DNA of 64,000 bases from an uncultured Chloroflexia bacterium (GTDB lineage: Bacteria; Chloroflexota; Limnocylindria; Limnocylindrales; CSP1-4). The notes under the pieces are model-generated. The model saw only the letters and a program-made list of their open reading frames with translations, did no database searches and was not told the origin of the DNA. Location of the stretch: positions 134,099-198,098 of the forward strand of contig CAVURB010000010.1 in NCBI GenBank assembly GCA_963743815.1. The letters run 5' to 3'. Below are positions 31,741 to 43,976 of this stretch, in pieces. The number at the start of each line of letters is the position of its first letter. The stretch's first letter is position 1. A program made the position numbers and the translations under genes.

Positions 31741-32124
31741 TTAGCGTTCGTCGCCGTAGGGTCGGGTGATGATCTCGAGGTTGTGCCCGCTCGGGTCGTC
31801 GAAATAGACACCGCGGCCGCCATCGTGGGTGTTGATCACGCCCGGCTCCTCGTGGCCGGGATCGGCCCAGAACTGATGGCCCCCTGACTGGATTCGACCG
31901 AAGATCGCGTCGAAGTCGTCCTCGCCCACGAGGAAGCAATAGTGCTGCGAGGCGATCTCCTCGGTCGTGTCGAGGTAGTCGAGGGTCACGGCGTTCGACA
32001 CCGCGACGGCGTGGAACGGACCCCAGGTCGTCGGACTCGGCAGTCCGAAGAGATGGGTGAGGAACTCCGCCGAGGCCCGACTGTCCCGCGAATACACGAT
32101 GGTGTGGTTGAGCTCGATGGACAT
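31741..32124 (-). CDS. VOC family protein (glyoxalase-like)
   Basis: 127 aa VOC fold. Confidence 0.6.
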   Translation of the reverse strand: MSIELNHTIVYSRDSRASAEFLTHLFGLPSPTTWGPFHAVAVSNAVTLDYLDTTEEIASQHYCFLVGEDDFDAIFGRIQSGGHQFWADPGHEEPGVINTHDGGRGVYFDDPSGHNLEIITRPYGDER

Positions 32125-32151
32125 GGTCCTACTCCTCCCTCGTTGTCGACC

Positions 32152-32798
32152 CTAACCGAGGCGCCAGAAGTCGCCGGTGAGGCCGAGCCGATCGAGCACA
32201 GCCTGGTTTTGCTCCCGCGAGTGCGGTCGCCAGTCAGGATCGAGGCGGTCCCACCACCAGGCCTCGGCGAGCTCGGCGGCCTTCGTGATCGACATGGTCG
32301 CGCCGGGCGGACGACCAGCGAGCCATCGGGAGAGGTGTGCTTCCGACCGGAAGACGAGCATGGTCCCTCACGTGTACCCGATGTCGTCCCACCAGGTGCG
32401 TGCCGGCACGAGGACATGGAAGACCGGGGCCGGGTCCGTCGGGCGATAGTCGTGGACCTCAAGATCGACCGAGTCGCCACAGTCGGCGCACGTCGTGTGG
32501 ATCATCGAGTCTGTACGCAGGACGACACCGATCCCGAACGCGTCCCATCCACAATTCGCGAACCAGGACCGACCGGCAGCCTCCACCCGATGCGGCGTCT
32601 CCACCGCGGAGAACGGGTTCGCCATCCGCAGCTGCCCCGCACCGTCGAGGACGAGCGCATGGGCGTCGTGCAATCGCTGCCAGGTGGTGACGACGACGTC
32701 GCTCCCCTGCCCCGTGGCAGCGGCGACCTCATCGATCGCTCGGCGCTCGACCGAGCTCGGCGAACAACCGATAGCTCGCGTTCCGGACGGCCAGATCG
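32152..32798 (-). CDS. MerB-like (alkylmercury lyase family) protein with in-frame TGA at the Cys159-equivalent position; candidate selenoprotein
   Basis: Catalytic motif WFANCGWD (Cys96/Asp99 equivalents of MerB); TGA at 32368-32370 aligns with catalytic Cys159 (…DIGYT-U-GTMLVFRSE… vs MerB …SFCCHVHFFAS…); downstream reading frame shows purifying selection; conserved hairpin follows the TGA; a 1-nt indel near the N-terminus (~32740). Confidence 0.6.
32328..32367 (-). other. SECIS-like hairpin immediately 3' of the UGA (mRNA GGGACCAUGCUCGUCUUCCGGUCGGAAGCACACCUCUCCC)
   Basis: Lower stem GGGA/UCCC, apical stem CUUCC/GGAAG with GGUC tetraloop about 15 nt after UGA; sequence is nearly identical in the paralog at 40329-40368. 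Confidence 0.5.
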
Positions 32799-32840
32799 TC
32801 AGGCGTCATCGCCGCAAAGGGTACGTGGTCCGGCCCCGAT

Positions 32841-34175
32841 CTATGGCGCATGGGCCGCGAAGAGTTGCCACGTGCCCGGGACGCCCTTCAGCTCGTGGCT
32901 GCCCCGGTCGTCGAACTCGAGTTCAGACCCAACGACGAGGTCCCTGACCGTGCTCGAGACCAGGACCTCACTCGGCCCGGCGAGGGCCGAGACCCGGGCA
33001 CCGATGTGGACGGCCATTCCGGCGATGTCGTCGGGCAGGACGTCGACTTCCCCGACGTGCAGCCCGGCCCGGATCTCCAGGCCGAGCTCCCGGACCTCGT
33101 CGCGGATCGCGAACGCGCATCGGACGGCTCGGGCCGGGCCGTCGAAGGTGGCCAGGAATCCATCGCCGATCACCTTGACCTCCCGCCCTCCGAAGCGGTC
33201 CAGCTGGCGACGGACGATCCGGTTGTGATCAGCCAGCAGGGTCCGCCATCGACCGTCGCCGAGCTCGGCCGCCCGTTGGGTCGATCCGACGATATCGGTG
33301 AACAGCACGGTCGCGAGCACGCGACGGGGGTCGAGCACCGGCCGAACACCCGTCACGAAGTCCTGGATCTCGGCGACGATCGCGTCCTGATCGCCAGCCC
33401 AGATGAGATTGTCGACACCGGGCAGCTCGACGTAGCGGGCATCGGGGATGTTCGCGGCGAGATAGCGTCCATGCTCTGCGCGGAATCCCGTCGCATCCGA
33501 TCGGTGGATGACCAGCGTCGGGACGCGGATCGCGGCCAGGACGTCCCGGACATCGCTTTCGTAGATGAGGCGGACGATCGCCTTCGTGCTGCCGGGCGTC
33601 GCCGCGCTCCGCTCGTAGCGCGCCCAGGCACGCCGGATCCGTTCGTCATCGGCCACGGACGGCGCGAAGAGGTCGATCATGACGCCGCGTCCGGCAAAGT
33701 CCTCGGCCTGCTCCAGGGCGGGTGTGAGTTCGACCATCGGCGCCCCGGCCGGGTAATCCGACGCCTCGAGGAACCGGGCGAAGCAGTCGACCAGGATGAG
33801 GCTCGAGACCCGATCAGGATGGGTGGCGGCGAACGGCATTGCCAGGATCCCGCCGCCGATGTTCGCGATCACGGCGGCTCGCTCCGAGCCGACGGTGTCG
33901 AGCACGGCCGGGATATCGGCCATGAACTCCTCGAGGGTCGGTAGCGACGACGTCGGGATCGGGTCCGACAATCCCGTTCCTCGCTTGTCGAACATGATCA
34001 GCCGACCGAAGGTCGCGAGGCGCTCCCGCAGCGCGGCGACCGGCGGGACGTCCCACTGGGCGTCGACATGGCCGAACCACTGATCCAGCAGGAGGATGTC
34101 TGGCGGCCCTTCGCCAACGACCTGGTAGGCCAGGTGCAGATCGCCGAGCCGGGCGTATCTGGTCTCGGGAAGCAT
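32841..34175 (-). CDS. Alpha/beta-hydrolase fused to class III adenylyl/guanylyl cyclase (LipJ/Rv1900c-like)
   Basis: N-terminal alpha/beta hydrolase domain, C-terminal cyclase catalytic domain (…VLFTDIVGSTQ…KVIGDGFLATF…). Confidence 0.8.
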   Translation of the reverse strand: MLPETRYARLGDLHLAYQVVGEGPPDILLLDQWFGHVDAQWDVPPVAALRERLATFGRLIMFDKRGTGLSDPIPTSSLPTLEEFMADIPAVLDTVGSERAAVIANIGGGILAMPFAATHPDRVSSLILVDCFARFLEASDYPAGAPMVELTPALEQAEDFAGRGVMIDLFAPSVADDERIRRAWARYERSAATPGSTKAIVRLIYESDVRDVLAAIRVPTLVIHRSDATGFRAEHGRYLAANIPDARYVELPGVDNLIWAGDQDAIVAEIQDFVTGVRPVLDPRRVLATVLFTDIVGSTQRAAELGDGRWRTLLADHNRIVRRQLDRFGGREVKVIGDGFLATFDGPARAVRCAFAIRDEVRELGLEIRAGLHVGEVDVLPDDIAGMAVHIGARVSALAGPSEVLVSSTVRDLVVGSELEFDDRGSHELKGVPGTWQLFAAHAP

Positions 34176-34245
34176 CGTTCGGAAGCGTACTCACCGTCGG
34201 ACTCCTCCGTCGCCTTACCCAGCAACCTGAGCACGCCCGGGCCGG

Positions 34246-34947
34246 ATGACCGACCATTCGGTCATGCCGACCGAGCACGACCAGCCATCCCCTCCCCCGC
34301 CGGTGAGCCCGCCGAGCGGCCCGCCGACGCCGGGGGACGTCGCCTGGGTCGCCGCCATCACCGCCGCGAAGGCCACCGTCGTCGCACTGGCCATCGACGC
34401 GTTCCTCAACTCCGACCAGCCCCGCTATCACGGCAAGGGCATGCGTCTCCGCGCCATCGGGTACGCGGGTGGGCTGCTCGTCGTGCCGGCGGCCTGGCGC
34501 GCCCTCGGACGACGCGAGCCGTACCCCCGGGAGCTTGACCTCGCGATCACCCTCCCACTCCTCGTCGATGCCGGCGGCAACGCCATCGGGATCTATCGGC
34601 GCGCCCACGTCGACGACCTGATCCATTTCGCCGATGGAGCGCTCGTCGCGTCCGTGGTCGGTGCGCTCGCGACGCCGCGGGTCCGGACCTCGTGGGAGGC
34701 CGCCGCAGCCGGGACGCTGGCGGGCGGCGCGGCGGCGGGGCTGTGGGAGATCGGCGAGTGGATCGGTTTCAAGCTGGGAGCCAAGGGCATGAACCTGTCC
34801 TACGACGACACGATGACCGACCTGATCGAGACGATGGCGGGAGCGGCGCTCGGCGGCGTCATCACCCTGTTGCGCCATCCGTCGCGTCTGCGGCGCGTGC
34901 CCGGCGGCTCGGGCGACCCGCTCGTCGAGCCGCACTCGAAGGCCTGA
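34246..34947 (+). CDS. Hypothetical membrane protein
   Basis: 233 aa ORF with Pro-rich N-terminus and several hydrophobic helices; good GC3 bias. Confidence 0.45.
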   Translation: MTDHSVMPTEHDQPSPPPPVSPPSGPPTPGDVAWVAAITAAKATVVALAIDAFLNSDQPRYHGKGMRLRAIGYAGGLLVVPAAWRALGRREPYPRELDLAITLPLLVDAGGNAIGIYRRAHVDDLIHFADGALVASVVGALATPRVRTSWEAAAAGTLAGGAAAGLWEIGEWIGFKLGAKGMNLSYDDTMTDLIETMAGAALGGVITLLRHPSRLRRVPGGSGDPLVEPHSKA

Positions 34948-34953
34948 CGCCGC

Positions 34954-35764
34954 GTGGCAGGCGGACGCGCTCCGGGTGACGCTTCCGTCGATATCGGCTA
35001 CGTCGGGCACGCCACGGTGCGCCTCGACGTCGCGGGGACGTTGATCCTGACCGACCCGTTCCTGCGCGCGCGCCTGGGGCCATTGGAGCGACACGGACCG
35101 ATGCCGGACGAGGTGGCCGATCTGGACATCGACCTCGTGCTGATCTCGCATGGGCACCCGGACCACTTCGACCCGGAGTCGCTCGCGTCGCTCAGGGGTT
35201 CGCCGACGGTCGTGGTCCCGCGCGGGCTCGGCGCTCGCGCGCGACAGGTGCTCCACGGGGACGTGATCGAGGTCGCGGCCGGGGAACGACTCTCGATCGG
35301 CGGCGTCACGGTCGACGCCGTCCCGGCCTCCCACTGGATCTCGCCGGGCGCCCCTCGCGCACAGCCGATCGGGTACGTCGTCGATGCCGGTCCGCGGATC
35401 TACTTCGCGGGCGACACGGGGCCATTCGCGGGTCTCGACCGGGTGCTCGCCGACGTCGACGTGGCGCTGCTTCCCGTCTGGACATGGGGTCCGCACCGTG
35501 GGCCCGGCCACCTTGGCCCGAAGTCGGCCGCCCAGGCCCTGGCCGCCGCCGGCCCGACGGTGGCGATCCCCATCCACTGGGGCACGCTCTACCCGCGGCG
35601 GCTGCACCGGCGTCTGGTCCGGCCCGTTGCGCGAGCCCGGCGACCGATTCGCCGACCACGCGGGTCGACTGGCGCCCGCGACGACCGTGGAGGTCCTGCG
35701 CCCGGGCGAGGACACGATCGTTCGCGTCGGTCGACGCGGTCAGGACGGTCCGTCGGGGCCGTAG
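34954..35764 (+). CDS. MBL-fold metallo-hydrolase (apparent C-terminal frameshift)
   Basis: LISHGHPDHFD metal-binding motif; C-terminus recovered in the second frame ending at 35764. Confidence 0.7.
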
Positions 35765-35774
35765 ACTCCGCGTG

Positions 35775-36977
35775 ATGGAGGGGTACGAGCTGACCGAGGC
35801 GGCCGCACGCTGCGGTCTGGGCGTCGACGAGCTGCAGCGGCTGGTCGCCCTCGGCGTGATCCGGCCCAGCGTCGGCGATCGGTTCAGCCGGGGCGACCTG
35901 CGTCGGGCCAGCCTGGTGACGAGTCTCGCGGCCGCGGGCATCTCGCTCGAGGGGCTCGCGCGCGGCGATCCGCGACGACCAGGTGTCGCTGGCCTTCCTC
36001 GATGCGACCGCGTTCGACCGGTTCGCCCAGCTGTCAGAGGTGACGTTCGCGGAGATGGCCGACCGGTCGGGCGTGCCGCTCGACTTCCTCCAGTACATCC
36101 GCGAGGCCTCGGGTTCTGTGGCCCCGGAGCCTGGCGACCGCATGCGCGACGCCGAGCTGCCGATCGTCACGTGGCTCCAGACGGCCCTCGGCGCCGGGAC
36201 CCGCCCGGCAGCGACGCTCCAGATGATCCGCGTCCAGGCCGACGGCCTGCGCCGCATGGCGGAGACGGAGGCGGCGTGGTGGCAGGCGGAGGTGCTCGGG
36301 CCCGGCGGCGGCGGGCGGCCAGCGGACGGACGAGGTCCTGGGCGCCGACTTCGGCGATCGGATGAGCGCCCTCACCGAGCAGGCGGTGATCTCGATGTAC
36401 CACCTCCAGCAGACGAAGGCGTGGACCAGCAATCTCGTGGAGGGGGTCGAGGCGATGCTCGCCGGCGCAGGGTTGCACAGCCGCCTGGACCGGCCACCGG
36501 CGATGTGCTTCCTCGACATCACCGGCTACACGCAGCTCACCCAGGAGCACGGTGACGCCGCGGCCGCCGAGCTGGCGGACCGGCTCAGCGGGATCGTGGG
36601 CCGGGCGTCGGTCAAGTACGGCGGGCGGGCCGTCAAGTGGCTCGGCGACGGCGTCATGTTCCACTTCCCCGACCCGGGGCAGGGCGTGCTCGCGGCGATC
36701 GAGATGGTCGCAAGCGTGACCGGGGCCGGTCTGCCGCCGGCGCACGTGGGGCTCCACGCCGGCCCGGTGATCTTCCAGGAGGGCGACTACTACGGGGCCA
36801 CGGTCAACATCGCGTCGCGGATCGCGGACTACGCCCGGCCGGACGAGGTGGTCGTCAGCCAGGCGGTCGTCGATGCCGCCGACGGCGCGCCGGTCACTGT
36901 TCCGCTCGATCGGGCCGGTCGCGCTGAAGGGGGTCGCCGCGCCACTGGACCTGTACGTGGCCACGCGGCCGGCCTAG
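35775..36977 (+). CDS. Adenylyl cyclase with N-terminal MerR-type HTH (multiple apparent frameshifts)
   Basis: MEGYELTEAAARCGLGVDELQRLVALGVIRP MerR HTH; cyclase domain MCFLDITGYTQLT…VKWLGDGVMFHF…; assembled from three frames. Confidence 0.65.
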
Positions 36978-37001
36978 TCGCCGAGGCATCGAGGAGGACA
37001 C

Positions 37002-37430
37002 ATGGGGTACGTGATCGGGGCGACGGTCGAAGCCGATGTGGATCCCGCCGCGGTCTTCGCTCTGTACATGGACCCGTCGACTTGGCCGGTCTGGGGCCAC
37101 AACGTCCGTTGGGCGCATGCCGACGGCCCGCTCGTCGAGGGCGGGATCGTCGAGATCCGCCCCAGATATCCGGTCACCTACAACTGCCGGATCCTGCGCC
37201 TGGTGCCGGGCTCGCTGCTTCGCATCGAGGTAAAGCCGAAAGGCATGACGATCGTCAACGTCTACGAGATCGAGCCGACCGCCGGCGGGTGCCGCGTCCG
37301 CCACGCCTTTGAGATCTCTGGCCCGCTTTCCGGACCCCTTCGATGGTTCGGCGTCGCCCGCCTCTACCAGTCGTCACTCGGCGACGAGATCCGCCATTGC
37401 ATCGAGCTCGCCACGTCGAGGTCCGCCTGA
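37002..37430 (+). CDS. SRPBCC (polyketide cyclase/START-like) family protein
   Basis: 142 aa ORF, START-like beta-grip pattern. Confidence 0.55.
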   Translation: MGYVIGATVEADVDPAAVFALYMDPSTWPVWGHNVRWAHADGPLVEGGIVEIRPRYPVTYNCRILRLVPGSLLRIEVKPKGMTIVNVYEIEPTAGGCRVRHAFEISGPLSGPLRWFGVARLYQSSLGDEIRHCIELATSRSA

Positions 37431-37459
37431 ACGTCTCCCCCACTGGGATCCCGCCCGAA

Positions 37460-38473
37460 CTAGTCGCCCGAACGCTGCATCGCGGCGAGGCTCCCGAGCG
37501 CGGCCGGATCGAGCGCATCCTGCGACACGGCAGCGACCCGGGCGCGGGTGCGGGCCCGCAGCGTGGCGGTCCTGACGCCGTCCCGCTGGCCGGCGCGCTC
37601 GCCGACGACGGCACCGGGGCCGATCTCGGCGATCTCCTCGCCGTCCCGCACGACGACGAAGATCCCATCGAGGATCAGGAACACGTCCGTGCCGGGTTCA
37701 CCCTGCGGACGAGCTCCTCGTCCGGCCGCGAGGGTGCGGATCTTGGGCTTGGCCCCGTCGTCCATGATCGCGCCGGACAGCGAGCGCTCCAGCGCCAATT
37801 CGACCGCCGCGACGATGGCCGGCGAGTCCTGCTCGCCCCATGGGGTTCGATCGCCGTGCGCGTGGTTGAACCACTGCGCGAAATCGATGGTGCCGGACTT
37901 CTGGACGAGCCGTCCTTCGTGGTCATAGATCCAATGGCGCGGGAAGGGGCTGGCGCCCACGAGCTCGTGACTCGAGCTGCCGTCGGCGTTCAGGGTCAGG
38001 GCGAGGGTCGTCCACGCGATCGACGGCCAGAACTGGACGAACGGCTTGTGCGGGACGGGCCGGGGTGTCGGGAGCCCCATCCGCCCACCGATGGTCTGCA
38101 CGAACCGGGCCGACGTTTCGGTGATCTCGGGCGCCGGCTGGATGTCAGGCAGCTGGACCGCGGGGAACCGCAGCGCAGCCGGCCCCACTTTGACCGTCGT
38201 GGCGCCGATGTGGCCCTGGCCGAGATGACCGGCGTCCACGATGCGCCCGTCCTCCACCTCGATGAACGCCCGAAGCTCGTTGGCCTCGCGGAAGCGGTCG
38301 CTCGTCCGCAGCGCCTCCAGATCCTCGATCCGATCCGGCGGTGGCTCGTCGTAGTGGGTCACCCCGAGCTCGAACGTGATCTTCGCCGGGCCGGTGATCG
38401 CCTCGGACGGGATCCAGGAGACGGCGATGACGGACAATTCGAAGCGCTGTCGGACCACGGGCGTAGACCTCAT
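37460..38473 (-). CDS. Protein with N-terminal domain of unknown function and C-terminal cyclic-nucleotide-binding domain
   Basis: C-terminal …DGEEIAEIGPGAVVGERAG…RTATLRA… phosphate-binding cassette of cNMP-binding domains. Confidence 0.65.
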   Translation of the reverse strand: MRSTPVVRQRFELSVIAVSWIPSEAITGPAKITFELGVTHYDEPPPDRIEDLEALRTSDRFREANELRAFIEVEDGRIVDAGHLGQGHIGATTVKVGPAALRFPAVQLPDIQPAPEITETSARFVQTIGGRMGLPTPRPVPHKPFVQFWPSIAWTTLALTLNADGSSSHELVGASPFPRHWIYDHEGRLVQKSGTIDFAQWFNHAHGDRTPWGEQDSPAIVAAVELALERSLSGAIMDDGAKPKIRTLAAGRGARPQGEPGTDVFLILDGIFVVVRDGEEIAEIGPGAVVGERAGQRDGVRTATLRARTRARVAAVSQDALDPAALGSLAAMQRSGD

Positions 38474-38526
38474 TGCGGGGCGGGCACCCGGGTAGTCTAG
38501 CCATCGACGACCGTGCGTTTGGAGCG

Positions 38527-39138
38527 ATGACGATGAAGCTGTCGGCCACGATGTTCCTCACCCTGGACGGTGTGTACCAGGGGCAAGGGGGCGCCGACGA
38601 GGACCGCCGCGGCGGGTTCGAGCGCGGCGGCTGGGTGGCACTGCATCCCGACGAGGAGATCTGGCCCTACATCCAGTCGGTCTACGAGCGCGCCGACGCG
38701 TTCCTGCTCGGGCGCGTCACCTGGGAGATCTGGGCCCGGTATTGGCCGTTCCACGACGCGGGCGACCCGGTCTCGCACGGGCTCAATGTGCTGCCGAAGT
38801 ACGTCCCCTCGACCACGCTCACCGACCCGTCGTGGGCACTGACCCACGTCATCTCGGGCGACGTCGAGGCGGCGGTGCGCGAGCTCAAGGCGCAGCCCGG
38901 ACGCGAGCTCCAGGTCCACGGCAGTGGTGTGCTGCTCCGATGGCTCCTCGAGCGCGACCTCGTGGACGAGCTCAACCTGCTGATCTACCCCGTGGTGGTG
39001 GGCGACGGGATGCGGCTGTTCCCGGAGCGTGGCCCGACGCACGACCTGACCCTGGTCTCGTCGAGGACGACGCCGTCCGGCGTGACCCTCCAGACCTATC
39101 GACCGGCCGGCCGCGCGACGTTCGGGGCTGCCGGCTGA
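38527..39138 (+). CDS. Dihydrofolate reductase family protein (RibD C-terminal domain-like)
   Basis: MTMKLSATMFLTLDGVYQG… and …LQVHGSGVLLRWLLERDLVDELNLLIYPVVVGDG… typical of the YwjB/RibD_C family. Confidence 0.7.
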   Translation: MTMKLSATMFLTLDGVYQGQGGADEDRRGGFERGGWVALHPDEEIWPYIQSVYERADAFLLGRVTWEIWARYWPFHDAGDPVSHGLNVLPKYVPSTTLTDPSWALTHVISGDVEAAVRELKAQPGRELQVHGSGVLLRWLLERDLVDELNLLIYPVVVGDGMRLFPERGPTHDLTLVSSRTTPSGVTLQTYRPAGRATFGAAG

Positions 39139-39265
39139 CTCGCGGGTAGAGCGCTAGCGGCGAACGACCTCGAATCGAATGGTCATTCCGCCGATGTGCC
39201 GGCGTGCGGCCGGCACCTAGGCTGGCCCTTCGACTCAATCGACCCTTCTTGAACAAGGAGACCAC

Positions 39266-40102
39266 ATGACCGAGGTCATGGAACTGAACGATGCCGACCG
39301 CGCCCTGAAGGCCCGCCACCGCGCGATGTGGGCGATGGGCGACTACGACGCCGTCGCCACGCAGGTCATCCCGGCGCTCGGGCCCGTCCTCGTCGACGGG
39401 ACGGGGATCAATCCCGGCGATCGCGTCCTCGATGTCGCGGCAGGGTCCGGGAACGCATCGCTGCCGGCCGCTCGCGCGGGCGCACGGGTCGTTGCCAGCG
39501 ACCTCACGCCTGAGCTCCTCGATCACGGGCGCCAGCACGCCGCGTCCGAGGGACTCGAGATCGACTGGCATGAGGGCGATGCCGAGGCGCTGCCGTACGA
39601 GGACGCGTCGTTCGACGTGACGATGTCGCTCGTCGGGATCATGTTCGCGCCCCACCATCAGGCGAGCGCCGATGAACTGGTCCGCGTCACCCGTCCCGGC
39701 GGACGGATCGGCCTCATCAGCTGGACACCGGAGGGCTTCATCGGCCAGATGTTCGCGACGATGAAGCCGTATGCTCCACCGCCGCCTCCCGGGGCGCAGC
39801 CTCCGCCGCTCTGGGGCCGCGAGAGCCACGTCCGCGAGCTGCTCGGCGACAGCGTCACGGACGTGCGAGCGACCGTCGCGAACCTGACGGTCGACGCGTT
39901 CACCGGCCCAGAGGACTTCCTGGCGTACTTCAAGCGCAACTACGGCCCGACGATCGCGGTGTACAAGTCGCTTGCCGACCAGCCGGAGCGCGCCGCTGCG
40001 CTCGACCAGGAGCTCGTGGACCTCGCCTCCCGGTTCGGATTCGCCGACGGCGTCGCGACGATGGACTGGGAGTACCTGCACTTCACCGCCACCAGGGCGT
40101 GA
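39266..40102 (+). CDS. Class I SAM-dependent methyltransferase
   Basis: VLDVAAGSGNASL motif I, 278 aa. Confidence 0.75.
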   Translation: MTEVMELNDADRALKARHRAMWAMGDYDAVATQVIPALGPVLVDGTGINPGDRVLDVAAGSGNASLPAARAGARVVASDLTPELLDHGRQHAASEGLEIDWHEGDAEALPYEDASFDVTMSLVGIMFAPHHQASADELVRVTRPGGRIGLISWTPEGFIGQMFATMKPYAPPPPPGAQPPPLWGRESHVRELLGDSVTDVRATVANLTVDAFTGPEDFLAYFKRNYGPTIAVYKSLADQPERAAALDQELVDLASRFGFADGVATMDWEYLHFTATRA

Positions 40103-40142
40103 GCCCGATGGGGCGCTCCTGACATCCCGTCTTTCGTCGGAG

Positions 40143-40483
40143 CTAGCCGAGGCGCCAGAAGTCGTCCGTGAGGCCGAGGCGATCGAGGATCGCCTGGTTC
40201 TGCTCGCGTGTGTGCGGCCGCCAGTCGGGATCGAGGCGGTCCCACCACGAGGCTTCCGCGAGCTCGGCGACCTTCGTCAGCGGGATGCTGGCGCCCGGCT
40301 GGCGGCCGGCGAGCCAGCGGGAGAGGTGTGCTTCCGACCGGAAGACGAGCATCGTCCCTCAGGTGTGACAACGTCACTCCCCTGACCCGTGGCGGCCGCG
40401 ACCTCGTCGACGATCGGCGCGCGTCCCAACTCGGCGAACAGCCGATACGTCGCGTTCCGGACAGCCAGGTCCTCAGGCGTCAT
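40143..40483 (-). pseudogene. Internally deleted paralog of the MerB-like gene (N-terminal 45 aa + C-terminal 71 aa; retains TGA and SECIS-like hairpin)
   Basis: About 90% nt identity to 32152-32385 and 32695-32798; ~310 bp including the NCGWD catalytic region is missing; junction at short gtg microhomology; N and C parts are out of frame. Confidence 0.6.
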
Positions 40484-40609
40484 CGCCGACAAGGGTACGC
40501 CGACGCGATCACGGTCGGACCGGGTTGCGCCGCATCAGGTCATGGCTACCATGGACGTGGCGCGCGCGTTGATGCGAGTCGGCCTGCGGGTCGAAGCGGG
40601 AGGGCGACG

Positions 40610-41370
40610 ATGCGGCGGTTCCTGGTGATCCTGGCGATCTTGGCGATGGTGCTTGTCGGCTGTAGCGGGGCGGCTGGCTCGGCGGCGCCGACGGACGGAC
40701 CGACGACGGGGTCCAGCGCCCCATCGGAGGCGGCGTCCCAGGCTCCTGGCGGGTCCCCTTCCTCGTCGACCGATGCGTCGGCGGCCGCCTCCGAGCCCCC
40801 GGCCGCGTCCGAGGCCACCGGGATCCCGGCGGCGTGTGCCGAAGGTTTCGCGGAGTATCTCGTCGCGATCGAACCGCTCGTCTCGGGGTTCGATCCAGCG
40901 ACCGGGACCCTGGCTGACCTCTTCAGCGCGAAGGAGGCCGCCCGATCGAAGTCGATGGAGCTTCTGACCGCCAACGACTCGCGGGCACCGTACAGCTGCT
41001 CGGAAGTCGGCCTCGAGTGGGCGTACTTCGATTCGGACACGCCGTGGGATGCCGTCCTGGCGATCGCCGCCGACGACGGCCCCGGGCACGGTGGCCTATC
41101 TGACGGGGCTGCGGGCCACGTCGGCGTTCGACGTGAACGCGATGAGCGTCTACGGGATCGAGGGGTGTGACGACGCCGTCGCCGAGCATCAAGGAGCGCG
41201 TGGCCGCCGAGATGGGCGACGGCCTGACCAGGGTCGACGAGATGCCCTTCGACGAGGCCGTCGCGCTGGTGGGCCTCTACCGGGCCTACATGCGCGAGGT
41301 CCGGAACGAGGTCTGCCCGCGCGACGAGCTGGGCAACGACGAGTTCGGCTTCATGGCCTCCGCCGGTTGA
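40610..41370 (+). CDS. Lipoprotein, hypothetical (apparent frameshifts)
   Basis: MRRFLVILAILAMVLVGCSG lipobox, Ser/Ala/Pro-rich linker; C-terminus in another frame ending at 41370. Confidence 0.5.
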
Positions 41371-41372
41371 GG

Positions 41373-42771
41373 CTACGCGGTCGGCGGCTCCACGTTGTGG
41401 TTCAGGTGGAAGACGTTGGTCGGGTCCCACGTGCGCTTCAGGGCGCGGAGACGTTCGAGCTTCGCGTCACCGTAGCTGGCGCGGGTCACGTCCGGCCCGG
41501 CATCCGACAGCTCGTTGATGTACCGGCCCGGAAGGAGGTCCGGCTCGACGATCGCCATCGCCCGCCGTACCCAGTCCAGGTTCGCCTGATCGAGCGCCGG
41601 ATCGGACCAGGCGGTGTCGGGGCTCACATCGAACGGCGCGGTCGCGCCCGGTGAAGGCCGTCGCGTCGTCCGCGACGCGCCCGATCGCGCCGCCCATCGC
41701 CGTCACCGAGATGCTGCTGTCGCCCGGGACGTGCTCCACGTGCTCGACGAACGCATCGAGGACCGCGGGCGAACAGTCGGCGATGTAGCCGCCGAGGATG
41801 GCGGTCCGCGAACCCCACGCGAGTTCGAGGTCGCTCGACCGCTGCGCGTCGAGGTACGGCTCGCTCGTGGCGGTCGCCGAGGCCGGCTTCGGGTCCATGG
41901 TGGAGCGGAGCGAGATCTCGCTCGACGTCCTCCCCTGCCCCACTGTGGTTGTACGAGATGACGACGATCGGCCGGCCGGCGACCGATTCCGGATAGTCCG
42001 CGGCCGGCTCGGCGAGCGCGACGGTGAAGATGGCGGCGATCGTCTCGGGCGCCGTCGCCACGAACTCGCGAAAGATCGGCCAGAGCTCGTGGATGTCGGT
42101 CGCGGGGTGGATCCGGACGCCCCGGTGGAGCGTCCCCGGAGAACGGATGCAGCTCCAGCTCCAGGCTCGTCACGATGCCGAAGTTGGCACCGGCGCCGCG
42201 GAGTCCCCAGAACAGCTCCGGCTCGTGCTCGACATCTGCTCGCACCGTGCGCCCGTCGGCGGTCACGAGCTCGACTGCGCGAAGGCTGTCGATCGTCAGG
42301 CCGAACCGGCGCTGCAGCCGTCCGACGCCGCCGCCGAGCGTCAGCCCGGCGACGCCCGTGTGACCGACGACCCCGACCGGGCAGACGAGGCCGTGCTCCT
42401 GGGCCGCGATGTCGAGTGTGCCGAGGAGTGCTCCGCCACCGGTCCGCGCCAGCCGCGCGCGTCGGGTCGACGGTCACCTCGTTCATCCGCCCGAGGTCGA
42501 TGACGAGACCACCGTCGGTCGTCGAATGCCCGACCGCGCTGTGGCCGCCGCCGCGCACGGCGATCTCGAGCTCGCGCTCACGGCCGAAGCGGATGGCGGC
42601 CGCAACGTCGTCGACGCTCGACGGCCGGACGATCAGCGCCGGCCGACGGTCGAACACCGCGTTCCAGACGCGTCGAGCGTCGTCGTACGTGGCGTTCTCG
42701 GGCGCGATGACGTCGCCGGCGAAGTGGCGCCGGAAGGCGTCGAGCTGGGCGAGCGTCGGGGCGGTGGTCAC
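41373..42771 (-). CDS. FAD-linked oxidase (BBE/VAO family), multiple apparent frameshifts
   Basis: FAD-binding PCMH domain (…[10 protein letters not shown]…), C-terminal BBE domain (…[14 protein letters not shown]…); pieces in three frames. Confidence 0.65.
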
Positions 42772-42791
42772 GCTCGCACCCTACCGCCTCC

Positions 42792-43025
42792 TTATTCGTC
42801 GCGGGACGCGGACAAGGCATCGAGTGCTTGTGGGTCCAGGGCGTCGGCAGGCACGCTCGCCACGCGTGCAGCCGAACGCGCCACGAGGGTGGCGGTCCGC
42901 CGCCCATCGGTAAGCCCGGCGCGTTCGCCGACGACGGAACCCGGCCCGATCTCGACCACGGGCTCGCCATCGACCTGGATCCATGAGACGGAGGTGACCC
43001 ACGACTCGAATCGCTGACGTGCCAT
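42792..43025 (-). pseudogene. Internally deleted paralog of the cNMP-binding protein (N-terminal ~17 aa fused in frame to the C-terminal cNMP cassette)
   Basis: MARQRFESWVTSVSWI | QVDGEPVVEIGPGSVVGERAG…RTATLVA… matches both ends of 37460..38473 with the middle ~250 aa absent. Confidence 0.5.
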
Positions 43026-43031
43026 GGATCT

Positions 43032-43433
43032 CTACCTCGTGATCTCGCGTTCGATGTGGTTGACATGCTGAGCCTCGTGGTCGGCCAGCCGGTCGATGTA
43101 ATGCCGCGCGGACCGCTCCTCGACGCCGCGCGCGGGGATGTTCACGGCCGCGGTACGCGTGAAGTCTGCGGCATCGGTCGCGCGAAGATGCGCCATCAGG
43201 CGCGCTCGATCCCTTGTGAACGCCGCCAGCGATTCGCCGAACGGTTGCTCGAGGAAATCTGTTCGATGGATCGTGGAGCGCGGGCTCTGCGCGCGGAACG
43301 ACGGGTGCTCCTCGTCGAGGATCCGCTCGATGTAGCCGCCCCACGTCAGATCACAGGCGCGGATGTGACCCAGGATGTCACGCGCGGACCAGCCACCGTC
43401 CTCCAGTGGCTGGTGCAGAAGGTTCGCCGACAC
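43032..43433 (-). CDS. DinB/YfiT-like (DinB_2) metal-dependent hydrolase family protein
   Basis: 133 aa, His-rich DinB_2 motifs (…ILGHIRACD…HEAQH…). Confidence 0.6.
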   Translation of the reverse strand: MSANLLHQPLEDGGWSARDILGHIRACDLTWGGYIERILDEEHPSFRAQSPRSTIHRTDFLEQPFGESLAAFTRDRARLMAHLRATDAADFTRTAAVNIPARGVEERSARHYIDRLADHEAQHVNHIEREITR

Positions 43434-43526
43434 CCCACCCGTCGCGGCCGCGATCCGCGCGGGCCCACGTTCGAGGAGCGCGAGGGCCTCGTCGACCGCA
43501 AATCGCGGTTTGGGCTCGCTGATGGC

Positions 43527-43976
43527 TTACGCCTCTGAGCCGGGGCCCATCGCGACCGTCCCATCGGAGAGGACCGGCGTGATGAGACCGAACACGTTGC
43601 CGTCGGGGTCGATCAGGTAGCCGCCCCGGCCGATGCCGGGATAGTCGGTCGCCGGCAGCGCCTCGACGGCGCCGAGCTCGATACCGCGGGCCATCAGCCC
43701 ATCGACCTCCTCGACGCCGACCACGAAGTTGCAGCCGTTGATCGGCGCTCCCACCTCCGGGCGCGGTCCGCCGCGCTGCGTCAGGCCGCCATTGATGCCG
43801 AGACCCGCCTTCGCCTCGACGTTTCCGATCGCGCCCTCGCCGGTATCGATGATCCAGTACGGCTGCTCGCCGCCGCCGATGTCCTGGAACGTCCAGCCGA
43901 GCAGCTCGGAGTAGAAGTCGATGAGCCGTTGCGGCTCCGATGCATGGATCTCGAAATGGACGACGAGGTTGGCCAT
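43527..43976 (-). CDS. VOC family protein (glyoxalase-like)
   Basis: Start at MANLVVHFEIHASEPQRLIDFY…; VOC fold. Confidence 0.65.
   Translation of the reverse strand: MANLVVHFEIHASEPQRLIDFYSELLGWTFQDIGGGEQPYWIIDTGEGAIGNVEAKAGLGINGGLTQRGGPRPEVGAPINGCNFVVGVEEVDGLMARGIELGAVEALPATDYPGIGRGGYLIDPDGNVFGLITPVLSDGTVAMGPGSEA

Follow-up and report, generated by a model that had tools for sequence, protein, structure and literature searches.

A MerB-like gene with a conserved in-frame TGA appears to encode a selenoprotein and lies near two internally deleted gene relics in a Chloroflexota genome

We analysed a 64,000-nucleotide stretch of DNA from an uncultured Chloroflexia bacterium (contig CAVURB010000010.1, positions 134,099 to 198,098; GC content ~70%), hereafter the window, in which two unrelated genes on the minus strand each have a shorter relative nearby. 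The first is a MerB-like gene (copy 1, 32152..32809), whose shorter relative merB' lies at 40143..40483. The second encodes a 337-aa protein with a cyclic nucleotide-binding (cNMP) domain (37460..38473), and its shorter relative, cNMP', is a 77-aa open reading frame (ORF) at 42792..43025. An initial annotation of this DNA had noted that both shorter relatives keep only the ends of the gene, in the same strand and order as the full-length copies, and sensitive blastn of 31.0–39.2 kb against 39.2–45.5 kb bore this out. Exactly four significant segments were found, all on one strand and collinear: 32152–32375 with 40143–40366 (86.2%, 224 nt, E 1e-72), 32692–32825 with 40367–40499 (85.1%, 134 nt, E 6e-38), 37560–37628 with 42886–42954 (78%, E 4e-9) and 38398–38460 with 42964–43027 (75%, E 2e-5). 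These BLAST segments were used in place of a global MAFFT alignment of the long and short forms, which misplaced the N-terminal parts. The wider collinear similarity implied by the initial annotation did not materialise: blastn found nothing collinear between the two blocks outside the four short segments, the next match having E 0.004 over 38 nt, and tblastn found no additional copies of either gene in the window. Two relatives serve for comparison throughout, a related contig 92–94% identical to the window (L001) and a relative ~88% identical (L082).

On the minus strand, copy 1 of the MerB-like gene forms one frame from 32809 to 32152 with a single interruption, a TGA at 32368..32370 (...WWDDIGYT*GTMLVFRSE..., the asterisk marking the TGA). 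The frame has 218 codons, with Cys86, Asp89, the TGA as putative selenocysteine (Sec) 147 and a 71-residue tail, and it reaches 32809 where the initial annotation had ended it at 32798. The Pfam MerB profile matches residues 66–184, across the TGA, with E 1.4e-27 (96.6 bits against a gathering score of 27). A TGA stands at the same aligned position in merB' (40359–40361). In alignment with MerB2 (PDB 5c17, ...GGTCKQIHYFSS), the second catalytic Cys falls at this codon, and the motif FANCGWD upstream of the codon supplies the Cys-x-x-Asp.

The interruption recurs among homologs. In L001, a 98%-identical 146-aa homolog (P0001) is accompanied by a 69-aa ORF, and among the best 120 of the 2369 homologs retrieved in a database search with the MerB-like protein, 118 are 145–168 aa long and terminate exactly at ...DIG(Y/F)T. 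One homolog of 219 aa (P0005) reads through the position with Cys, encoded by TGC (...DIVYSCTTMNLFRSE...). Another, of 239 aa (P0095, on a contig of 52,751 nt), has a garbled middle followed by ...LDPDWRPHTREQNQAILD... and is an apparent frameshifted read-through translation, another mis-call. Since the UGA lies inside the gene, gene callers break it up, annotating a 146-aa "MerB" and, separately, a 69-aa "hypothetical protein". This is a systematic mis-annotation of a family that counts 550 relatives in species-representative genomes and thousands of proteins from metagenomes.

To compare the codon itself, the Sec position was mapped by tblastn in the 80 closest loci from species-representative genomes. 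The carriers are Chloroflexota (Limnocylindrales among them), Gaiellales, Acidimicrobiia, Thermoleophilia, bins labelled Methylomirabilota, and Geodermatophilus. TGA occupies the position in 79 of the 80 loci and TAG in the remaining one, compared with 47 TGA, 30 TAG and 1 TAA among the terminal stops of the same genes, which served as a matched control. In 69 of 78 loci a further 71 codons follow the TGA without a stop, and the tail has 60–98% amino acid identity. A conserved in-frame TGA with an open frame beyond it indicates that the 69-aa ORF forms the C-terminal part of a putative selenoprotein, so the earlier suggestion that it might be a functional truncated paralog does not hold; in neither copy is it a separate gene, being the reading frame after the conserved TGA. 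The sole TAG is found in Geodermatophilus saharensis DSM 45423 (L054:10442-10444, NZ_FZOH01000009.1). Santesmasses et al. 2017 (PMC5330540), who refer to Mukai et al. 2016, describe in Geodermatophilaceae a tRNASec with a CUA anticodon and selenoprotein genes with TAG as the Sec codon. Because this family decodes Sec with UAG, the exception behaves as a Sec codon should. The locus would add a MerB-like protein to the UAG selenoproteome of Geodermatophilaceae, and it provides a natural control for the reassignment of UAG to Sec.

Directly downstream of the TGA lies a candidate selenocysteine insertion sequence (SECIS), the hairpin CUUCC-GGUC-GGAAG (32340..32353, minus strand), whose loop starts 19 nt after the UGA. 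In 82 of 82 sequences the stretch TCTTCCGGTCGG (columns 17–28, numbering from the T of TGA) is the same even at synonymous sites, with Phe encoded only by TTC, Arg only by CGG and Ser only by TCG. The Glu codon in the hairpin is GAA in 68 sequences and GAG in 13, and GAG still pairs (U-G). By contrast, an Arg codon 12 codons downstream is CGC in 39, CGA in 17, CGT in 13, CGG in 12 and AGA in 1. The RNAalifold consensus consists of this hairpin (18–22 paired with 27–31, loop GGUC), and all five pairs can form in every one of the 82 sequences. When 48-nt segments were folded, the hairpin was present in the unconstrained minimum free energy (MFE) structure of 73 of 82 and the constrained MFE was at or below -7.5 kcal/mol in all 82. 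The published limits of the bacterial SECIS (bSECIS) model are a loop of 3–9 nt with G in its two initial positions, a stem of 4–16 bp, a distance of 16–37 nt from the UGA and an MFE of at most -7.5 kcal/mol (PMC13188914); with its GGUC loop, 5-bp stem, 19-nt spacing and MFE, the hairpin falls within all of them. The hairpin is also intact at the Geodermatophilus TAG locus. The sole Cys form (L088) has TCT for Ser, followed by a codon that begins with A, so that two of the five pairs are broken. The hairpin becomes clear only through the 82-sequence comparison; folding 66 nt around the TGA of the window yielded another MFE structure, with a z-score that was not significant. Rfam found no match in the window at gathering score.

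Could the TGA nevertheless be a true stop, with the gene naturally split into polypeptides of 146 and 69 aa and the second restarting at an ATG two codons on? All 82 sequences keep the Met at +3, TGA is the most frequent stop in these genomes, and no Sec machinery was seen in the 64-kb window and the fetched loci, the only DNA searched. However, that Met is found in the Cys form too, the stop falls precisely on the position of a catalytic Cys, and both parts are always in one frame, exactly two codons apart. TGA occupies this position in 79 of 80 loci as against 60% of genuine gene ends, the lone TAG occurs in a family that uses UAG for Sec, and a SECIS-type hairpin is formed by invariant synonymous sites. 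We therefore consider a natural split highly improbable. From these comparisons we infer that Sec is inserted at position 147, and the MerB-like gene appears to be an unannotated Sec-encoding gene.

Several observations weigh against this. No tRNA-Sec was found in the window or in 60 loci, a search that covered only 64 kb of this genome. There is no compensatory covariation among the 82 sequences because the hairpin is invariant, and an extended 9-bp stem shows no covariation beyond controls, leaving the longer stem unsupported. In addition, copy 1 carries an extra G at 32739 (minus strand), a +1 frameshift in codon 24, where P0001 reads APTIDEV. This insertion, the only gap across a 2503-nt alignment to L001, may be a genuine lesion or an error of assembly. 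Because of it, copy 1 may itself be dead in this strain, despite the label "intact".

As a separate observation, ARAGORN called long "tRNA-Cys(gca)" genes of 95–97 nt in two of the loci (L074:11310-11406 and L075:15641-15735), 2–5 kb from the MerB-like gene. These were considered as tRNA-Sec-like candidates and rejected, as Rfam gave no tRNA or tRNA-Sec match, and they are probably false positives.

The second copy, merB', retains 39 N-terminal codons up to a junction at 40366|40367, then 5 nt, the TGA at 40359–40361, the SECIS hairpin at 40331–40344 and the 71-codon tail. It is thus, as the initial annotation proposed, an internal-deletion derivative of a relative of the MerB-like gene. The net loss relative to copy 1, corrected for the extra G, is 316 nt, equivalent to 32376–32691, and the catalytic Cys86 and Asp89 are gone. 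As 316 cannot be divided evenly by three, the frame of the N-terminal part is shifted and runs into ...DVVTPEGRCSSS... and a stop. The Sec frame is shut by another TGA five codons upstream (...GSGE*RCHT*GTM), and merB' is predicted to be unable to translate its own Sec codon. Between the two copies dS is 0.49–0.61 and dN 0.07 (omega, or dN/dS, 0.12–0.15); such an omega at a dS of 0.5–0.6 indicates that merB' spent a long time under purifying selection ahead of the deletion. For most of its past merB' would have been under constraint and presumably functional, with the deletion comparatively recent. Its nearest relatives form the copy-1 clade (the homolog in L002, 87%; copy 1, 85%), with the homolog in L003 next at 83%, and merB' is either a paralog of long standing or a xenolog that came from a close lineage. 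No second MerB-like copy was found within 10 kb in any of the 80 loci, and in the protein collection each of the two relic ORFs stands alone as a singleton (at 90% identity for the 77-aa ORF).

The full-length cNMP protein combines a conserved N-terminal region of ~250 aa without a Pfam match and a C-terminal cNMP_binding domain (E 6e-10, residues 257–321, profile positions 13–82 of 89). It belongs to a strongly conserved family of ~332-aa proteins with thousands of metagenome homologs that are 78–91% identical. Compared with L001, the gene contains a compensating pair of indels at 37705 and 37725 (+1/-1, 20 nt apart). The pair rewrites seven residues at the start of the cNMP domain, giving AAGRGARPQ in place of A(A/P)D(E/D)ELV(R/T)Q.

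The 77-aa ORF joins residues 6–21 to residues 277 to the end (copy-1 numbering) across a QV junction, the in-frame N- and C-terminal fusion that had been described, and corresponds to an in-frame loss of ~253 codons. It keeps the last ~60 residues with the phosphate-binding GERA...RTATL. Pfam cNMP_binding (PF00027) matches it with E 2e-7 and 31.3 bits against a gathering score of 27.5, over profile positions 34–82 of 89 only, which is short of a complete domain, an eight-stranded barrel with its phosphate-binding cassette. The two cNMP copies are 66% identical in nucleotide sequence (dS ~1.27, dN 0.29, omega 0.23). The 77-aa ORF is slightly nearer to P0198, its closest full-length relative and a protein from another genome (45/59 C-terminal and 12/16 N-terminal residues identical), than to the window copy (38/55 and 10/16), and the P0198 locus (L087) shows no synteny with the second block.

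The initial annotation also raised the idea that the short ORFs are functional truncated paralogs, for instance a decoy or dominant-negative cNMP-binding module. In such a reading the 77-aa ORF would bind cAMP as a decoy or dominant-negative module, and the 69-aa MerB tail would be an independent small protein. In favour of a working mini-protein, and against our view of the 77-aa ORF as dead, are its in-frame structure, its retention of GERA...RTATL, its passing of the Pfam gathering score and its omega of 0.23 against copy 1, which together with the intact 77-aa frame fits a functional protein. Independent in-frame N- and C-terminal fusions of the same family also exist elsewhere, namely P0277 (76 aa) and P0274 (98 aa), with different junctions; P0277 (L084:587-817, L085, L086) is identical in three samples, has the junction SWI|GPGAVVGERA and lies upstream of a DNA ligase gene. 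However, the first beta-strands of the cNMP barrel are absent from the 77-aa ORF, the ORF is a singleton at 90% identity, omega mainly records its history before the deletion, and open frames of 77 codons are frequent by chance at 70% GC. Detection is also biased, as only in-frame fusions are called as proteins, and all three junctions differ, as independent accidents would give. The MerB tail belongs to a larger protein in 80 of 80 relatives, and the ribosome-binding-like GAGG ahead of its ATG is not conserved. Functional mini-proteins are very unlikely as a whole, and the 77-aa ORF by itself is unlikely to be a functional truncated paralog. A variant to which we give a slimmer chance still is that the mini forms of the cNMP family (the 77-aa ORF, P0277 and P0274), all of which keep the start and the phosphate-binding half-domain, may be recurrent and non-accidental, acting on the full-length cNMP protein as cAMP sponges or dominant-negative partners, with the UGA and SECIS of merB' similarly titrating SelB. 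We read the three fusions as independent accidents that are visible since only in-frame cases get called, and both relics in the window are most likely dead, internally deleted leftovers.

The initial annotation attributed both relics to one old duplication of a ~7 kb block (VOC, MerB, intervening genes, cNMP) followed by deletional decay of the second copy. The arrangement has features that fit: the relics lie less than 3 kb apart and less than 8 kb from their full-length relatives, strand and order are common to relics and full-length genes, and a VOC gene stands near each block. However, shared order and orientation have a chance of about 1/8 for any two genes, and the divergence of the two pairs is unequal. 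The proportion of synonymous differences is 0.38 for merB and 0.61 for cNMP, a difference of ~2.8 standard errors (our calculation from counts), with dS 0.49–0.61 against ~1.27 and dN 0.07 against 0.29. These estimates come from only 71–110 codons and the cNMP dS is near saturation, which tempers the argument for separate origins. Proteins of other genomes resemble the 77-aa ORF slightly more than copy 1 does, and the DNA between the genes in the two blocks (4.6 kb and 2.3 kb) shares nothing. The VOC genes, one near each block, are not duplicates of each other, being 34% identical over 58 aa, of different Pfam subfamilies and at opposite, non-equivalent block ends.

Synteny in the relative L082 points the same way, as neither a merB' nor a cNMP' remnant is present there. 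The methyltransferase gene and the flavin adenine dinucleotide (FAD) oxidase gene, which flank merB' in the window, are convergent and overlapping there, directly adjacent with no relic between them and with the oxidase gene intact at 464 aa, and there is no merB', lipoprotein gene or cNMP'. VOC gene 1 abuts the cyclase gene in L082, with no merB at all. The lipoprotein-like gene and merB' together make up a segment of 1.27 kb that is absent from L082 between methyltransferase and FAD oxidase; neither this segment nor either deletion junction presents a clean case of target-site duplication or microhomology. Gene order is fluid here, a single ~7 kb duplication is neither needed nor supported, and we regard it as unlikely. 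What remains of the earlier interpretation is that both short copies are internal-deletion derivatives.

The genes around the relics show further damage. VOC/glyoxalase gene 1 (31741..32124, minus; Pfam Glyoxalase) lies directly downstream of merB copy 1 and adjoins merB in L001 too, and VOC/glyoxalase gene 2, of the Glyoxalase_6 type, lies at 43527..43976 (minus). Between the relics are a FAD_binding_4/BBE oxidase gene (41373..42771, minus), with four 1-nt indels relative to the intact L082 gene and four switches in the phase of GC content at third codon positions, and a lipoprotein-like gene (40610..41370, plus), which runs through three successive frames with two apparent frameshifts and has a signal peptide with Cys and no Pfam match. 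An Ad_Cy_reg/adenylate-cyclase gene (35775..36975, plus) carries +1 insertions at 35960, 36300 and 36896, whereas L001 and L082 have an intact gene of 399 aa. This cyclase gene is next to or near the 337-aa cNMP gene in the window, L001 and L082, with an SRPBCC gene between them in the window and L001, which suggests a conserved pair of cAMP producer and sensor. A second cyclase, fused to an alpha/beta-hydrolase domain, is encoded at 32841–34175. At 34242–35734 lies a cassette of a DUF2238 membrane protein and a metallo-beta-lactamase-fold protein, in place of which L001 has a Fic gene and a 41-aa ORF; in L082 the cassette is placed elsewhere, marking a local hotspot of change in gene order, with no mobile-element genes seen nearby. 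Outside this region, tblastx against L010 gave adjacent high-identity segments offset by one base at ~53875 (minus), which suggests a further frameshift in the gene at 52.7–54.0 kb, in either the window or L010.

The several frameshifted genes reflect either real decay or assembly errors. If the 1-nt frameshifts were consensus errors of metagenome assembly, the two large internal deletions would be the only real lesions. The indels are private to the window relative to the independent relatives L001 and L082, the window is part of a 250-kb contig whose nearest named relatives are metagenome-assembled genomes (MAGs), the 37705/37725 pair restores the frame after seven codons, and there is the additional frame discrepancy near 53.9 kb relative to L010. 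On the other hand, the indels are not limited to homopolymers, and they are clustered, with 1 in 2.5 kb (31.7–34.2 kb) compared to 7 within 2.6 kb and 4 within 1.4 kb elsewhere, while many ORFs of 500–680 aa elsewhere in the window are intact. The clustering and the intact long ORFs argue for real decay, and we see consensus error as a possible but somewhat doubtful explanation.

Taken together, the window probably holds two unrelated genes with one dead relic of each, the relics being independent in origin and the MerB-like gene being a selenoprotein gene. The sequence of events that we infer is as follows. First, the UGA that stands for the catalytic Cys159-equivalent would be decoded as Sec with the help of the downstream SECIS hairpin. 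Second, merB' would be a second, once-functional copy from which a single 316-nt internal deletion took the catalytic core (Cys86/Asp89) and shifted the frame, leaving start, UGA, SECIS and tail in place. Third, the 77-aa ORF would be the remnant of a second member of the ~332-aa cNMP-binding family after its in-frame deletion, with just the latter half of the binding domain left. Lastly, the two relics would have arisen independently of each other, in a rearrangement-prone stretch with several frameshifted genes, the source of each being an old paralog or a horizontally acquired relative of the full-length gene.

Decayed duplicates alone would be an ordinary finding, and the value of these lies in the selenoprotein gene that they expose. 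If Sec is inserted as proposed, the clade would carry Sec-dependent organometal chemistry beyond strict anaerobes, into high-GC Chloroflexota and Actinomycetota, with carriers that are mostly MAGs. The 15-nt SECIS core could be used as a simple probe. More generally, the gene calls for caution with annotations of this kind, as a short conserved ORF beside a truncated enzyme gene may prove to be the end of a gene that contains a UGA. We found no paper describing this MerB-like selenoprotein clade in a literature search, and MerB goes unmentioned in the main text of the GOS (Global Ocean Sampling) selenoproteome paper.

Several known systems resemble parts of this locus. As in ordinary pseudogene decay, both relics keep their ends and lose their middles amid damaged genes and fluid gene order; they differ in that merB' retains a perfect UGA and SECIS and that the cNMP relic is in frame. 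The putative SECIS resembles that of the E. coli fdhF type, a short hairpin just 3' of the UGA with an apical loop that starts G-G-U. In the E. coli fdhF SECIS the loop likewise reads GGUC, occupying positions 22–25 from the U of UGA, one nucleotide nearer to it. The hairpin differs from other bSECIS elements in that only 5 base pairs are firmly supported and in the invariance of its 15-nt core over at least three phyla. Such conservation is unusual for bSECIS elements, which have been described as sharing little sequence (PMC13188914).

The MerB-like protein resembles the organomercurial lyases MerB (MerB R831b Cys96/Asp99/Cys159) and MerB2 (5c17), aligning to MerB2 over residues 20–175, including FA(N/W)C and the position of the second catalytic Cys. 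In contrast to MerB, it has a putative Sec in place of Cys, and it scores below the NCBIfam equivalog cut-offs (NF009710 and NF033555; 43.3 against 193 bits and 41.5 against 200 bits). No merA, merR or merT was found near the MerB-like gene in a neighbour analysis of the 80 loci.

MerB-like selenoproteins are already known: SaoL appears as "alkylmercury lyase MerB-like protein" in selenoproteome reviews, and SaoL (NCBIfam NF040728) is a MerB-like organometallic lyase selenoprotein whose Sec162 aligns to MerB Cys159 (Haft & Gwadz, bioRxiv 10.1101/2022.07.06.499078). Both SaoL and the protein described here belong to the MerB family (PF03243) with Sec, putative in the latter, at the MerB Cys159-equivalent, and both combine Cys-x-x-Asp with Sec (Cys99/Asp102/Sec162 in SaoL, Cys86/Asp89/Sec147 here). 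For both, database entries routinely end at the UGA, with 50–70 residues of true C-terminus beyond. However, the window protein scores 50.4 bits against the NF040728 cut-off of 140, and its motif is T-U-(G/S) as opposed to C-U in SaoL. While SaoL marks a nine-gene SAO locus, the MerB-like gene has no conserved neighbourhood; clustering of neighbours in the 80 loci yielded no conserved partner gene, the commonest family being present in only 14. Its carriers are high-GC Chloroflexota (Limnocylindrales-type), Actinomycetota MAGs and Geodermatophilus, in contrast to the strict anaerobes that carry SaoL. By these measures the protein would be a relative of SaoL and not a member of the SaoL family, and the clade appears to be a further group of MerB-like selenoproteins, apparently distinct from SaoL and outside every NCBIfam model.

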